Below, in pieces: positions 1 to 6,776 of a DNA stretch of 6,776 nt. The stretch is from a virus (taxonomy: Duplodnaviria > Heunggongvirae > Uroviricota > Caudoviricetes), in the IMG/VR virus record IMGVR_UViG_2602041568_000010, one strand, 5' to 3'. Position 1 is the first letter of the stretch; the number at the start of each line of letters is the position of its first letter. The notes under the pieces are model-generated. The model was given only the letters and a program-made list of their open reading frames with translations, did no database searches and was not told the DNA's origin. The position numbers and the translations under genes were made by a program.

Positions 1-2611
<2,611 letters not shown>

Positions 2612-2637
<26 letters not shown>

Positions 2638-3157
2638 TCAGCAACCCCGGTATCAGTTCATCCAGCGCGGCTGCTTTGTTCATGGCTTTGATGATATCCC
2701 GTTTCAGGAAATCAACATGTCGGTTTTCCAGTTCCGGAAAACGCCGCTGCACCGACAGGGGGATCCCGTCGAGAATACTGGCAATTTCACCTGCGATCCG
2801 CGACAGCACGAAAGTACAGAATGCGGTTTCCACCACTTCAGCGGAGTCTCTGGCATTTTTCAGCTCCTGTGCGTCGGCCTGCGCACGCGTAAGTCGATGG
2901 CGTTCGTACTCAATAGTCCCTGGCTGGAGATCTGTCTCGCTGGCCTGCCGCAGTTCTTCAACTTCCCGGCGCAGCTTTTCGTTCTCAATTTCAGCATCCC
3001 TTTCGGCATACCATCTTATAACGGCGGCAGAGTCATAAAGCACCTCATTACCCTTGCCACCGCCTCGCAGAACGGGCATTCCCTGTTCCTGCCAGTTCTG
3101 AATGGTACGGATACTCGCACCGAAAATGTCAGCCAGCTGCTTTTTGTTGACTTCCAT
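2612..3157 (-). CDS. nu1: Terminase small subunit Nu1 (181 aa)
   Basis: ORF-track protein MEVNKKQLADIFGASIRTIQNWQEQGMPVLRGGGKGNEVLYDSAAVIRWYAERDAEIENEKLRREVEELRQ... is recognisable as lambda Nu1 with a few substitutions. Start context GTGGAATGAACA-ATG matches lambda. Sits immediately beside cosB. Confidence 0.95.
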
Positions 3158-3176
3158 TGTTCATTCCACGGCCAAA

Positions 3177-3300
3177 AACAGAGAAAGGAAACGACAGAGG
3201 CCCAAAAGCTCGTTTTCAGCACCTGTCGTTTCCTTTCTTTTCAGGGGGTATTTTAAATAAAAACATTAAGTTACGACGAAGAAGAACGGAAACGCCTTAA
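3177..3300. promoter_or_regulatory. cosB: terminase (Nu1) binding region with R1, R2, IHF site I1 and R3
   Basis: Three copies of the Nu1-binding R-element core CGTTTCC-TTTCT: R1 about 3179-3199 (cagagaaaggaaacgacagag), R2 about 3221-3242 (acctgtcgtttcctttctttt), R3 about 3279-3297 (gaagaacggaaacgcctta), with an AT-rich bendable segment (3247-3278) between R2 and R3 where lambda has the IHF site. Order and spacing from cosN match lambda, with several base differences. Confidence 0.8.
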
Positions 3301-3334
3301 ACCGGAAAATTTTCATAAATAGCGAAAACCCGCG

Positions 3335-3346
3335 AGGTCGCCGCCC
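3335..3346. other. cosN cohesive-end sequence (12 nt, reverse complement of lambda GGGCGGCGACCT)
   Basis: Plus strand reads aggtcgccgccc at 3335-3346, flanked by cgcgaggtcgccgccccgtaacctgtcgg, which is the reverse complement of the lambda cos junction ...CCGACAGGTTACG|GGGCGGCGACCTCGCG.... Confidence 0.88.
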
Positions 3347-3354
3347 CGTAACCT

Positions 3355-3376
3355 GTCGGATCGCCGGAAAGGACCC
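3355..3376. other. cosQ (packaging termination element), approximate
   Basis: Position (about 10-30 bp on the right-end side of cosN) and sequence tcggatcgccggaaaggaccc correspond to the lambda right-end segment GGGTCCTTTCCGGTGATCCGA where cosQ maps, as I recall. Exact boundaries uncertain. Confidence 0.45.
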
Positions 3377-3382
3377 GCAAAA

Positions 3383-3397
3383 TGATAATAATTATCA
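3383..3397. promoter_or_regulatory. Perfect 7-1-7 inverted repeat TGATAAT-a-ATTATCA (Fur-box-like operator candidate)
   Basis: Read directly: tgataataattatca is a perfect palindrome and matches the 7-1-7 Fur-box core TGATAATnATTATCA at 14/14 positions. It lies between cosQ and the plus-strand 77-aa gene. Function not established. Confidence 0.35.
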
Positions 3398-3545
3398 TCT
3401 ATATGTCACAACGTGCATCTACGCCATCAAACCACGTCAAATAATCAATTATGACGCAGGTATCGTATTAATTGATCTGCATCAACTTAACGTAAAAACA
3501 ACTTCAGACAATACAAATCAGCGACACTGAATACGGGGCAACCTC

Positions 3546-3779
3546 ATGTCAACGAAGAACAAAACCCGCAGAACAACAACCCGCAACATCCGCTTTCCTA
3601 ACCAAATGATTGAACAAATTAACATCGCTCTTGAGCAAAAAGGGTCCGGGAATTTCTCAGCCTGGGTCATTGAAGCCTGCCGCCGGAGACTGTGCTCAGA
3701 AAAAAGAGTTTCTTCTGAAGCAAACAAAGAAAAGAGTGACATTACTGAATTGCTCAGAAAACAGGTCAGACCAGATTGA
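3546..3779 (+). CDS. Small basic protein, 77 aa, putative ribbon-helix-helix-like DNA binder; YnfO/YlcI-like conserved lambdoid right-end ORF
   Basis: ORF-track protein MSTKNKTRRTTTRNIRFPNQMIEQINIALEQKGSGNFSAWVIEACRRRL.... Basic N-terminus, then strand-helix-loop-helix pattern (RNIRFPNQ / MIEQINIALEQ / KGSGN / FSAWVIEACRRRL) typical of RHH folds. Position and length match my memory of Qin ynfO and the lambda right-end ORF. Transcribed antisense to the late operon. Confidence 0.7.
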   Translation: MSTKNKTRRTTTRNIRFPNQMIEQINIALEQKGSGNFSAWVIEACRRRLCSEKRVSSEANKEKSDITELLRKQVRPD

Positions 3780-3836
3780 AGCAATTTAGATAATCGTGCA
3801 GACTACGCCCCCTCATATCACATGGAAGGTTTATCT

Positions 3837-4247
3837 ATGGATCAGGTAGTCATTTTTAAACAAATATTTGATAAAGTTCGAAACGATTTAAACTATCAAT
3901 GGTTTTATTCTGAGCTAAAACGTCACAATGTCTCACATTACATTTACTATTTAGCCACAGAGAATGTTCATATTGTATTAAAAAATGATAATACAGTGTT
4001 ATTAAAGGGCCTAAAAAACATTGTGTCTGTCAAATTTTCAAAGGATAGGCATCTTATAGAAACGACCTCTAATAAGCTGAAATCCAGAGAGATCACATTT
4101 CAGGAATACAGAAGAAACCTTGCTAAAGCAGGAGTTTTTCGGTGGGTTACAAATATCCACGAACAAAAAAGATATTACTATACCTTTGATAATTCATTAC
4201 TATTTACTGAAAGCATCCAGAAAACTACACAGATCTTACCACGCTAA
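3837..4247 (+). CDS. Hypothetical protein, 136 aa, YdfO-like (DUF1398-like) conserved lambdoid right-end ORF
   Basis: Part of ORF 3822..4247. I place the start at ATG 3837 ([18 protein letters not shown]...) because GGAAGG sits 7 nt upstream. Synteny (immediately after the 77-aa gene, near cos) and size match the Qin ydfO / lambda putative envelope protein position. Family assignment is from memory and not verified. Confidence 0.65.
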
Positions 4248-4255
4248 ACCATAAC

Positions 4256-4284
4256 GTCCGGCTTCTCTCACTCCTGAGCCGGAC
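4256..4284 (+). terminator. Hairpin 9 nt after the stop of the 136-aa gene (possible terminator)
   Basis: Perfect 8-bp stem GTCCGGCT / AGCCGGAC with a 13-nt loop, followed by tgcattggtttaataaaaa. The T-tract is weak, so intrinsic termination is uncertain. Confidence 0.3.
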
Positions 4285-4348
4285 TGCATTGGTTTAATAA
4301 AAACCATCAACAATTGTGATTTAGATATTCGGAACCATTCAAATATAA

Positions 4349-4369
4349 CAAAACCCCGTAAAAACGAGG
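4349..4369 (-). terminator. Rho-independent terminator candidate downstream of gnsB
   Basis: Minus-strand RNA CCUCGU-UUUU-ACGGGG (6-bp stem including one G-U pair, UUUU loop) followed by UUUUG UUAUAUUUG, about 30 nt after the gnsB stop. Confidence 0.45.
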
Positions 4370-4398
4370 TTTATGGATAAATTTTATTATTGAATACA

Positions 4399-4572
4399 TC
4401 AGATTAAATTAATCTTGACATCATAGCTTTCAAGACCCGTCATTTTTTCCCGTGCGGTAAACTGAATACTGGTAACTTCTTTCCCGGTCTTTTTCTTAAG
4501 TTCAATAATTTTTTTTGTTATATATTCAGAAATATCTGCTTCTGCTTTTGTTTTTAAGTTTTCAATATTCAT
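4399..4572 (-). CDS. gnsB: GnsB (Gns family small protein, 57 aa)
   Basis: Not in the ORF track (under 60 aa). My codon-by-codon translation of the minus strand gives (M)MNIENLKTKAEADISEYITKKIIELKKKTGKEVTSIQFTAREKMTGLESYDVKINLI-stop, recognisable as GnsA/GnsB family. SD AAGAGGA precedes tandem ATGs at 4575 and 4572; spacing favours 4572. Confidence 0.85.
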   Translation of the reverse strand: MNIENLKTKAEADISEYITKKIIELKKKTGKEVTSIQFTAREKMTGLESYDVKINLI

Positions 4573-4743
4573 CATTTCCTCTTTTAGTCTGTTATGACTT
4601 TCCAGTTACACAGTAAGTCGATTATATGGTGCAAACGTGTAAAAGATAAGATGAAACATCGCAATAATCAACATACGATAGTCTAAATTTTACACAAACA
4701 GACAAAGAGAATTTTCCTGAATTATCAATGCAATAGCATCAAA

Positions 4744-4974
4744 TCAACTCAAGAGCCTTATTGCTGCTTCCAGAATTTCTTCTGAAGTAACATGTCGATC
4801 CGCGGCTACATAAATGACTTTATGATCTCCGGTCAGAGATGGAAACCCTGCGGCCATTACAGTAAGGTGTGTTTTTTCGCCATTTGGATATTCACGCATG
4901 ATGGTGTTAACTCCAGTCATCGCTGGCACTACCACTGCTGGTTCAGAGTTAAAAAAAACTATGATTTTTTTCAT
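4744..4974 (-). CDS. Hypothetical protein, 76 aa (YmcE/YnfN-position ORF immediately upstream of gnsB)
   Basis: Inside ORF-track 4744..5016 (which begins at a TTG). I prefer the ATG at 4974: MKKIIVFFNSEPAVVVPAMTGVNTIMREYPNGEKTHLTVMAAGFPSLTGDHKVIYVAADRHVTSEEILEAAIRLLS. Composition looks like a globular protein, and a 230-nt ORF in this AT-rich stretch is unlikely by chance. Translation signals are weak. Family not recognised. Confidence 0.45.
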   Translation of the reverse strand: MKKIIVFFNSEPAVVVPAMTGVNTIMREYPNGEKTHLTVMAAGFPSLTGDHKVIYVAADRHVTSEEILEAAIRLLS

Positions 4975-5157: not shown

Positions 5158-5245
5158 GTCAGAAACATCAAAAGATGATGTTCTATACTGGGAACCATGA
5201 CAACACGGGCATCTAAAGTGAATATGGTTTGTAATATTGTCTACC

Positions 5246-5458
5246 TCAAAGCGCCACTACATGAACAGCGGCAGGACCTTTAGGTCCGTTCTCAATACCA
5301 AATTCAACTTCCTGATTCTCAGTTAATGTTTTGAAATCGTTGCTCTGAATTGCTGAGAAATGGACAAACACATCTTTGCTGCCATCTTTCGGCGTGATGA
5401 AACCAAAACCTTTTTCAGGGTTAAACCATTTCACTAAACCAGTCATTTTGTTAGACAT
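5246..5458 (-). CDS. cspI: Cold-shock protein, CspA family (CspI-like), 70 aa
   Basis: ORF-track protein [70 protein letters not shown] carries the RNP1 (KGFGFI) and RNP2 (VFVHF) motifs of cold-shock domains. SD context AAGGTAATAATT-ATG closely resembles cspA. Confidence 0.93.
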
Positions 5459-5638
5459 AATTATTACCTTTTGAAGAAATTAGCCCTTGGGCAGAATGGT
5501 CCGAAAAAAAATATCAGAGAGAAAAACCAACAAGGAAATCTCAAGAGGTACAAATAATAAAATTATAACAATGACTGCTTCAGATAAATTTGTAACAAAC
5601 CAGAACACCATTAACGCATGATTAACCACCCATAGCAA
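5459..5638 (-). promoter_or_regulatory. cspI promoter candidate and long cspA-like 5' UTR
   Basis: Minus strand: -35 TTGCTA (5633-5638), 17-nt spacer, -10 GTTAAT (5610-5615), resembling the cspA promoter (TTGCAT / CTTAAT as I recall). Predicted leader about 145 nt, beginning GGUGUUCUGGUUUGUUACA... (cold-box-like). Confidence 0.4.

Positions 5639-5820: not shown

Positions 5821-6776
<956 letters not shown>

Follow-up and report, generated by a model that had tools for sequence, protein, structure and literature searches.

Two separable genes, ynfO and ydfO, beside the packaging site of a Qin-type lambdoid prophage

Introduction

The stretch of viral DNA studied here (IMG/VR record IMGVR_UViG_2602041568_000010; 6,776 nucleotides, referred to as the window) covers the cos region of a lambda-like prophage, displayed in reverse orientation, and our subject is the pair of small genes, ynfO and ydfO, that it carries between the packaging site cos and the lysis genes. 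It is effectively certain that the locus corresponds to the ynfO-ydfO segment found in Qin-type lambdoid prophages of Escherichia coli, and both genes are already known and named as y-genes of prophage Qin. A survey of the y-ome lists them as uncharacterised (PMC11551758).

A sequence-only reading of the window had described the two genes as a conserved cassette without assigned function, transcribed from a promoter near cosQ and laid out in the manner of a toxin-antitoxin, exclusion or small regulatory module, and had proposed profile searches of both proteins and structure prediction for the smaller one. Here we report these analyses together with a comparison of the locus across phages, prophages and phage satellites.

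Results

The locus contains two real genes of known families

The two genes lie on the strand opposite to the late genes of the prophage:

3546-3779, plus strand: ynfO, 77 aa, YlcI/YnfO family (DUF3950), a probable ribbon-helix-helix (RHH) DNA-binding protein according to its structural model
3837-4247, plus strand: ydfO, 136 aa, DUF1398; an alternative start at 3822 would give 141 aa

We prefer the start of ydfO at 3837 because a GGAAGG motif is found 7 nt upstream of this ATG and because RefSeq annotates the 136-aa form; the spacer between the genes is therefore 57 nt, as the sequence-only reading had stated. The start of ynfO is about 200 bp from cosN, and since the late genes are all on the minus strand, ynfO and ydfO are directed away from cos and run antisense to the late transcript. 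With the flanking genes assigned to the minus strand and cosN and cosQ located, the position and orientation previously given relative to R, Rz, Nu1 and A hold.

In profile searches, YnfO exceeded the cut-offs of both curated hidden Markov models (HMMs) of its family, Pfam DUF3950 (PF13132; 2.5e-21, 75.7 bits, cut-off 25) and NCBIfam YlcI_YnfO_N (NF041551; 36.7 bits, cut-off 30), and also matched PHROG 949 (1.4e-33). YdfO matched the Pfam HMM of DUF1398 (PF07166) over its full length (positions 1-119 of 119; 1.7e-46, 157.5 bits, cut-off 22) and is identical at 140 of 141 residues to a solved member of the family, PDB entry 2HH8 ('hypothetical protein ydfO'). Both genes are under purifying selection, with ratios of nonsynonymous to synonymous substitution rates (dN/dS) of 0.17-0.30 between the DUF3950 genes of lambda, 434 or Qin and that of BP-4795, and of 0.18-0.22 between ydfO and its lambda and DLP12 counterpart ybcV. 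The open reading frames, family matches, structural identity, RefSeq annotation and dN/dS values together bear out the earlier view that these are real genes encoding YnfO and YdfO.

In E. coli K-12, the Qin genes ynfO (b4533) and ydfO (b1549) are essentially the same DNA (99.7-99.9% identical over 1.5 kb) and have the same neighbours as in the window (nohA/Nu1 and gnsB-ynfN-cspI). The K-12 prophage is truncated past nohA, whereas the window retains an intact Nu1-A terminase and head genes, as does the isolated active phage PhiR42_1, which carries the same 1.5-kb segment (3200-4700) at 99.7% identity. This segment is present at an identity of at least 99%, annotated as ynfO, ydfO and gnsB, in about 1,025 complete E. 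coli genomes.

ynfO and ydfO occur without one another

Conservation of the two genes was confirmed, but the obligate pairing implied by a two-gene module was not. In a tblastn search of 50,697 phage records, YnfO-like genes were found in 155 records and YdfO-like genes in 43, with each gene occurring without the other. Phage 434 has cosQ, a DUF3950 gene, a bor-like gene and Rz, with no DUF1398; in BP-4795 and many Shiga toxin (Stx) phages Rz and the DUF3950 gene are followed by HNH-TerS-TerL (TerS and TerL, small and large terminase subunits), a different packaging system, again with no DUF1398. In a sample of 80 DUF3950 loci from IMG/VR, 17 had a YdfO gene downstream, about 40 were lambdoid loci without one, and about 20 belonged to satellites resembling phage-inducible chromosomal islands (PICI-like satellites).

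The converse is also seen. One locus (L172) combines a different small terminase with a ybcW-like gene, YdfO and the palindrome described below, and has no YnfO-like sequence. The K-12 gene ycgX, whose product is 44% identical to YdfO, adjoins bluR and has no DUF3950 partner, and more distant DUF1398 genes (33-35% identical) lie beside yedEF in Klebsiella and sopE2 in Salmonella, with neither phage genes nor DUF3950 nearby. These distant members were recovered solely by tblastn against plasmids; scans of genome contigs and of IMG/VR for distant DUF1398 yielded only near-identical Escherichia copies and lambda spike-in contamination.

Such contamination takes the form of lambda control DNA deposited as contigs or 'plasmids' of unrelated organisms, either as a right-end amplicon of about 3.5 kb or as the whole 48.5-kb genome. 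Examples are CP136411 (Arcanobacterium hippocoleae 'plasmid unnamed1', 3566 bp), CP127227 (Xanthomonas arboricola, 3560 bp), CP101708 (Synechocystis, 3581 bp) and NZ_CP068597 (Paenibacillus sonchi, 48499 bp). As a result, YlcI and YbcV appear to have a wider host range than they do, and frameshifted variants fill the protein databases.

Close adjacency of the two genes, at 57 nt, is restricted to the Qin-type arrangement. In lambda and DLP12 the order from cos is a ylcI-type gene (64 aa), ybcW on the opposite strand, ybcV (lambdap78) and bor, such that about 630 bp including ybcW separate the two genes, compared with about 70 bp in the Qin type, where the downstream gene is gnsB rather than bor. 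The sequence-only reading had placed the pair in the slot that holds bor in lambda; this is correct as to position, but bor is not alone there, and lambda also has a ylcI-like open reading frame and lambdap78/ybcV before it. The YlcI/YnfO homologue has no annotated coding sequence in the lambda reference (NC_001416 / J02459, complement of about 48133-48261), and newer records of lambda and 434 label it hypothetical or DUF3950.

The lambda-type and Qin-type proteins are clearly related: YbcV is 79% identical to YdfO and shares its upstream block, including the palindrome GGTCAGACC, and over residues 1-50 K6R is the single difference between YnfO and lambda YlcI. The tail of YnfO is longer than that of YlcI (77 versus 64 aa in total) and, judged from the sequence comparison, is from about residue 50 onward (the last 25 residues or so) a product of the junction. 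That ynfO and ydfO are separable, and do not form an obligate module, we regard as effectively certain.

ydfO is carried in an accessory cassette with its own upstream block

The following features, in addition to the gene itself, delimit the ydfO cassette:

3764-3772: GGTCAGACC, a palindrome that forms the core of a PdhR-type box; it lies at the 3' end of ynfO and opens the conserved ydfO/ybcV upstream block
3765-3794, plus strand: candidate ydfO promoter, called from its consensus match (GTCAGA, 18 nt, GATAAT, the -10-like hexamer at 3789)
4256-4284, plus strand: GC-rich hairpin just past the ydfO stop codon (-21.7 kcal/mol, z = -3.7, no U tract), a possible terminator or RNA-stabilising stem
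4351-4372, minus strand: terminator-like hairpin 3' of gnsB, the right bound of the cassette

When Qin is aligned with lambda and DLP12, homology restarts exactly at AGGTCAGACC / AGGTCAGACCAGATTGAAGC and extends to the ATG of ydfO/ybcV, and the ydfO cassette therefore has an upstream block of its own, about 75 bp long. With this block in place, the single cosQ-proximal promoter that the sequence-only reading had assigned to both genes is not required. L172, which has no YnfO, carries the palindrome GGTCAGACC, whereas 434 and BP-4795 have YnfO-like genes but not this palindrome; it therefore belongs to ydfO and not to ynfO. YnfO was considered as a binder of GGTCAGACC and rejected on this same distribution.

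Published data describe how the cassette behaves in the host. Genomic SELEX (systematic evolution of ligands by exponential enrichment) placed PdhR sites at the position of GGTCAGACC in both Qin and DLP12, and ybcV mRNA was down 10-fold in a pdhR mutant (PMC7660256). Transcripts of ydfO rose 12- to 116-fold under ionic liquid, and YdfO overexpression is cited there as raising resistance to oxidative stress (PMC4077768). In further published transcript data, ydfO/ybcV respond to overexpression of DicC and rise with derepression of lambda or DE3 and with DNase intoxication. The lambda homologue lambdap78 is non-essential by CRISPR interference (CRISPRi; PMC10695390), and lambda recombinants carrying ybcV::Kan are viable (PMC3945230). 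Classical work gives only cI, rexAB, lom and bor as genes expressed in the lysogen (PMC7067206).

The distribution and composition of ydfO are those of a moron, a phage accessory gene cassette in the sense of Hendrix and colleagues. The cassette is present in Qin, lambda and L172 and absent from 434, BP-4795 and a further locus (L236), and the GC content of ydfO is 31.6%, compared with 44% in ynfO and 53-54% in Nu1 and A (44-54% in the flanks). Like the bor/lom-type morons of lambda, ydfO occupies the slot between the lysis genes and cos, is antisense to the late transcript, has a low GC content, is variably present and is dispensable for lytic growth. It differs from Bor, a lipoprotein with a serum-resistance phenotype, in that YdfO shows no signal or membrane features, and no Pfam signal or membrane domain was matched. 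No toxin family in Pfam, NCBIfam or PADLOC matched YdfO either, and PADLOC-DB v2 returned nothing at E <= 1 for YnfO, YdfO, GnsB or YnfN. A similarity of YdfO to parafibromin (phmmer E = 0.014) was dismissed as chance, with profile E-values of 0.7-0.9.

A probable ribbon-helix-helix fold for YnfO

DUF3950 is a narrow family: among 1.84 billion proteins it has 119 representatives at 50% identity, and many of these representatives are error-ridden lambda control reads. Its genuine members share an invariant core, I-R-F ... F-S-x-W-V ... C, and in YnfO the conserved core comprises residues 1-50. An AlphaFold2 (AF2) monomer model of YnfO, built on a 19-sequence alignment (predicted local distance difference test, pLDDT, 72.6), shows an extended segment (residues 13-18) followed by a helix (19-32), a G-S-G-N turn and a second, long helix that begins at residue 37, a succession that follows the RHH pattern of an alternating strand (K-x-I-R-F-P), two helices and a short glycine-containing turn.

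When this model was compared with the PDB using Foldseek, about 45 of the 50 best matches were RHH proteins (among them ParD, StnY/CopG, Arc, NikR, KacA, MazE, CopA, MatP, HicB and VapB), yet all had E > 2. A profile search ranked the CopG-family chain 9kkd second, in register, with E = 0.38; RHH_6 was matched by 1 of 19 DUF3950 family members (E = 0.09); and in an hhalign comparison with Arc the N-I-R-F-P of YnfO fell in register on N-L-R-W-P (P = 0.011, probability 3.8%).

YnfO resembles Arc, Mnt and CopG (MetJ/Arc superfamily) in its short basic N-terminus followed by an alternating strand, helix, G-x-x-N turn and second helix, as well as in its size, its phage origin and its RHH-dominated structural neighbours. 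It differs from them in that neither sequence nor profile comparison gave a significant match with an RHH family, and in its long, variable C-terminal helix or tail, which the minimal Arc fold lacks. 'RHH-like' is probably the best structural reading of YnfO, and in this the model agrees with what had been proposed for the 77-aa protein from its sequence.

DUF3950 genes keep a constant topology in phages and satellites

In every context examined, the DUF3950 gene stands alone on its strand; it diverges from one operon at that operon's start and converges with another at its end. Phages show the order lysis genes, DUF3950 gene and then cos with Nu1-A or HNH-TerS-TerL; in satellites it is int-alpA, DUF3950 gene and icd-primase. 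The slot 3' of the gene is variable. In phages it holds ydfO, or ybcW, ybcV and bor, or bor alone, or it is empty.

In the satellites (L216-L235), the corresponding slot lies about 200-1700 bp downstream of the DUF3950 gene (at about 4001-4180), toward alpA-int, and holds variable AT-rich cargo with a GC content of 33-36%. This cargo includes a 363-aa HNH effector-domain protein (PADLOC PDC-M68A, 5e-28), a 302-aa LmuA-like protein (1.2e-11) and a 273-aa DUF2971 protein, and in some elements the slot is empty. From its sequence content the satellite slot looks like a defence hotspot. The PICI-like hotspots thus repeat the topology of the phage locus, with DUF3950 bordering a variable AT-rich slot between two conserved operons, but they have other flanks (int-alpA, icd-primase) and other cargo, and DUF1398 was in none of the slots examined.

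Upstream of several satellite DUF3950 genes we noted repeats that appear operator-like by sequence. In L089 (4545-4590) two copies of TGGTACGTACCA flank a TATAAT directly before the start codon, in L215 (about 3330-3458) there are three or four GTTTAACAC-type motifs, and in L214 (about 2850-2958) there are two or three copies of GGTGTTAGTACAC.

A fused form of the protein occurs in L088/L089 (5001-5363, plus strand; P0323, 120 aa), where DUF3950 and a copy of the DNA-binding domain from the TerS N-terminus (Terminase_2) form one protein. The TerS domain shares 64% identity with the TerS encoded by the adjacent prophage and 53% with that of the satellite itself, making P0323 a candidate packaging-interference or redirecting factor. 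At 5641-7881 of the same loci, the satellite integrase adjoins a 93-aa open reading frame and the TerS of a BP-4795-like prophage, with HNH, DUF3950 and Rz next; a PICI-like satellite has apparently inserted within the packaging region of a resident prophage.

The packaging site and the region upstream of ynfO

Between Nu1 and ynfO we located the following elements:

3335-3346: cosN, AGGTCGCCGCCC, the packaging site between Nu1 and ynfO, an exact match
3370-3376: cosQ, AGGACCC (late strand GGGTCCT), invariant in the alignment and annotated as cosQ in the record of phage 434
3382-3398: perfect palindrome ATGATAAT-A-ATTATCAT, kept in lambda, 434 and DLP12
3444-3476: 13-nt inverted repeat ATCAATTATGACG / CGTATTAATTGAT, 70-100 bp 5' of ynfO, a candidate operator

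The cosN site was aligned with lambda, DLP12 and 2H10, and the linear record of 434 starts just past it. The 200 bp from cosQ to the ynfO start codon are about 97% identical among lambda, 434, DLP12, 2H10 and the window, and therefore no covariation could be used to assess the 3444-3476 repeat. Near cos a single good sigma-70-like site was found, on the minus strand (GTGACA-16-TATCAT, 3409 to 3382, 10/12 matches); it overlaps the 3382-3398 palindrome and is directed through cos into Nu1. The open-access lambda expression literature yielded neither mapped transcription start sites nor ribosome profiling for this region.

Neighbouring genes of the window

The remaining genes that we assigned are all on the minus strand:

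6315-6731, minus strand: R (lysozyme)
5821-6318, minus strand: Rz, with Rz1 embedded within it
5246-5458, minus strand: cspI
4744-4974, minus strand: ynfN
4399-4575, minus strand: gnsB, convergent with ydfO; Pfam 'GnsA/GnsB toxin', 3.3e-35
2612-3157, minus strand: Nu1
764-2437, minus strand: terminase A; W is likewise on the minus strand

The entire stretch from 4.25 to 5.5 kb, which holds the gnsB, ynfN and cspI cargo on the late strand, is AT-rich. In the interval 5219-5604 (minus strand), cspI is preceded by a full-length cspA-type thermoregulator (Rfam RF01766, 112.8 bits), the sole real match in an Rfam scan of the window, which gave no RNA family in 3150-4750. Runs of N at 420-448 (29 bases) and 2456-2483 (28 bases), which resemble masking, break the frames of the portal and terminase A genes.

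Discussion

On balance, and with a confidence only a little above even, we favour the explanation that the locus combines a stand-alone small regulator (ynfO) with an independent moron (ydfO), and that the two lie side by side by chance. What we infer within this explanation is that YnfO binds DNA, together with its targets, the promoter of ydfO and any phenotype. YnfO would regulate transcription in a sequence-specific manner, most likely as an autorepressor at a shared control region, and ynfO would serve as the conserved 'anchor' of the slot, marking the boundary before the packaging operon in phages or the replication operon in satellites. The ydfO unit would consist of the PdhR-type palindrome, the -10-like hexamer, a Shine-Dalgarno site, the DUF1398 open reading frame and the hairpin. 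It would probably be transcribed in the lysogen from its own promoter under host control (PdhR, and probably silencing of the H-NS type), and be shut down during lytic growth by the antisense late transcript. YdfO itself may be a soluble protein that benefits the host or the prophage and is dispensable for virion production.

Several observations weigh against this explanation. A plus-strand search upstream of ynfO gave no good sigma-70 consensus, and we found neither a transcription start site nor protein-level data for ynfO in the literature. No single RHH match is significant, whether by Foldseek, profile search or hhalign, and the GGTCAGACC box, which follows ydfO and not ynfO, lends no support to a regulatory link from YnfO to ydfO. 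The AF2 model of YdfO, at a pLDDT of 48, offers no fold-based clue to activity. Within the close Escherichia lambdoid set, a YnfO-like gene usually lies upstream of the YdfO-like gene, and some functional coupling is therefore possible. Finally, TraDIS (transposon-directed insertion-site sequencing) puts ydfO among the low-insertion genes, although it is not essential in the Keio collection (PMC5821084). The same list includes antitoxins and several AT-rich, horizontally acquired genes (PMC5821084). Since it contains such AT-rich genes and since ydfO has close paralogues, occlusion by H-NS or ambiguous mapping of reads between paralogues is a plausible source of the scarcity of insertions, but the result could also mean more than this.

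The usual co-occurrence of the genes in close Escherichia lambdoid prophages, together with the order of a small RHH-like protein before a larger one on the same strand 57 nt apart, and the many RHH antitoxins (ParD, MazE, KacA, HicB, VapB) among the Foldseek neighbours of YnfO, would fit a type II toxin-antitoxin or abortive-infection pair in which YnfO is the antitoxin and autorepressor and YdfO the toxin. We consider this highly improbable. Such a pair is contradicted both by co-occurrence (155 versus 43 records, each gene being common without the other) and by operon structure, given the upstream block of ydfO/ybcV and the opposite-strand ybcW that separates the genes in lambda and DLP12, and the toxin-antitoxin layout proposed in the sequence-only reading fails on these two grounds. 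Moreover, the C-terminal tail of YnfO, the part through which antitoxins bind toxins, is a junction product and varies independently of the downstream gene, YdfO matches no toxin family or PADLOC model, and the publications consulted describe no toxicity. YdfO was produced for structure 2HH8, and its overexpression is cited for oxidative-stress resistance, not toxicity (PMC4077768), while the TraDIS screen flags ydfO and not ynfO, the opposite of what a toxin-antitoxin pair would predict (PMC5821084). Still less credible, to the point of being nearly untenable, is a role for YdfO as a virion structural protein, which is suggested by the labels 'head and packaging: head protein' (PHROG 413) and 'putative envelope protein' (lambdap78) and by the RefSeq and GenBank phage records that repeat them. 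These labels are propagated names behind which we traced no experiment. A virion protein would be expected in the late operon and to be needed for plaques, but ydfO is on the opposite strand, its lambda homologue is dispensable both by CRISPRi (PMC10695390) and as ybcV::Kan (PMC3945230), many lambdoid phages have no ydfO, and chromosomal paralogues occur outside prophages.

Two further alternatives concern the slot and its border. ydfO may be anti-phage cargo, for superinfection exclusion or defence, in a hotspot flanked by the DUF3950 gene, a reading that is compatible with the explanation we favour and that we hold to be possible but unlikely. Its antisense orientation to the late genes, AT-richness and variable presence are the signature of an accessory locus (PMC7067206), and the satellite slot beside DUF3950 encodes defence-type domains (PDC-M68A, LmuA-like, DUF2971); the loss of ydfO in one spontaneous phage-resistant mutant of avian pathogenic E. 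coli (PMC8711792) is a weak pointer of unclear direction. Against it, PADLOC matched neither YdfO nor YnfO, most of the satellite cargo and the DUF3950 gene are on opposite strands, and DUF1398 paralogues occupy non-phage sites in chromosomes (bluR, yedEF, sopE2), which suggests a general cellular role. Alternatively, YnfO might act on packaging or on the cos region, as an accessory factor or by interfering with packaging, and not as an ordinary transcription factor. The phage DUF3950 gene is always within a few hundred bp of the packaging end, whichever terminase type is present, sequence identity over the cosQ-to-ynfO interval is about 97% among lambda, 434, DLP12, Qin and 2H10, and the satellite fusion joins DUF3950 to a TerS domain 64% identical to that of the neighbouring prophage. 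We nevertheless judge a packaging role to be very unlikely, because satellites place the DUF3950 gene at icd-primase, away from their TerS, and because ynfO is antisense to the late operon that encodes the packaging proteins. Cosmids and lambda vectors are packaged with no known requirement for the ynfO region, which also counts against such a role.

Taken together with the explanation that we favour, namely an independent regulator beside an independent moron, the topology of the satellites invites a broader reading in which DUF3950 is a conserved and hitherto unrecognised RHH regulator of lambdoid phages and satellites that controls the operon boundary or the adjacent hotspot. As a joint claim this is tentative and, in our estimate, quite unlikely to hold in full. 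Were it true, DUF3950 could be a point of cross-talk between helper and satellite, and the DUF3950-TerS fusion would be a packaging-interference factor. On the same reading, since the right end of the lambda virion genome enters the cell first and ynfO is at that end and reads inward, ynfO could also be among the earliest genes expressed on infection.

For annotation and experiment, the ynfO-ydfO pair should not be handled as a toxin-antitoxin system or any other obligate module, and the labels 'head protein' and 'envelope protein' on DUF1398 in phage annotation are unsupported. The more interesting half of the locus appears to be ynfO, with its constant position in lambda, Stx phages and satellites beside an exchangeable slot for accessory or defence-like genes. 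If YnfO is indeed a regulator, it would constitute a new regulatory element at the boundary of the late operon and cos in the best-studied phage, and would offer a handle on the interaction between satellites and their helpers.

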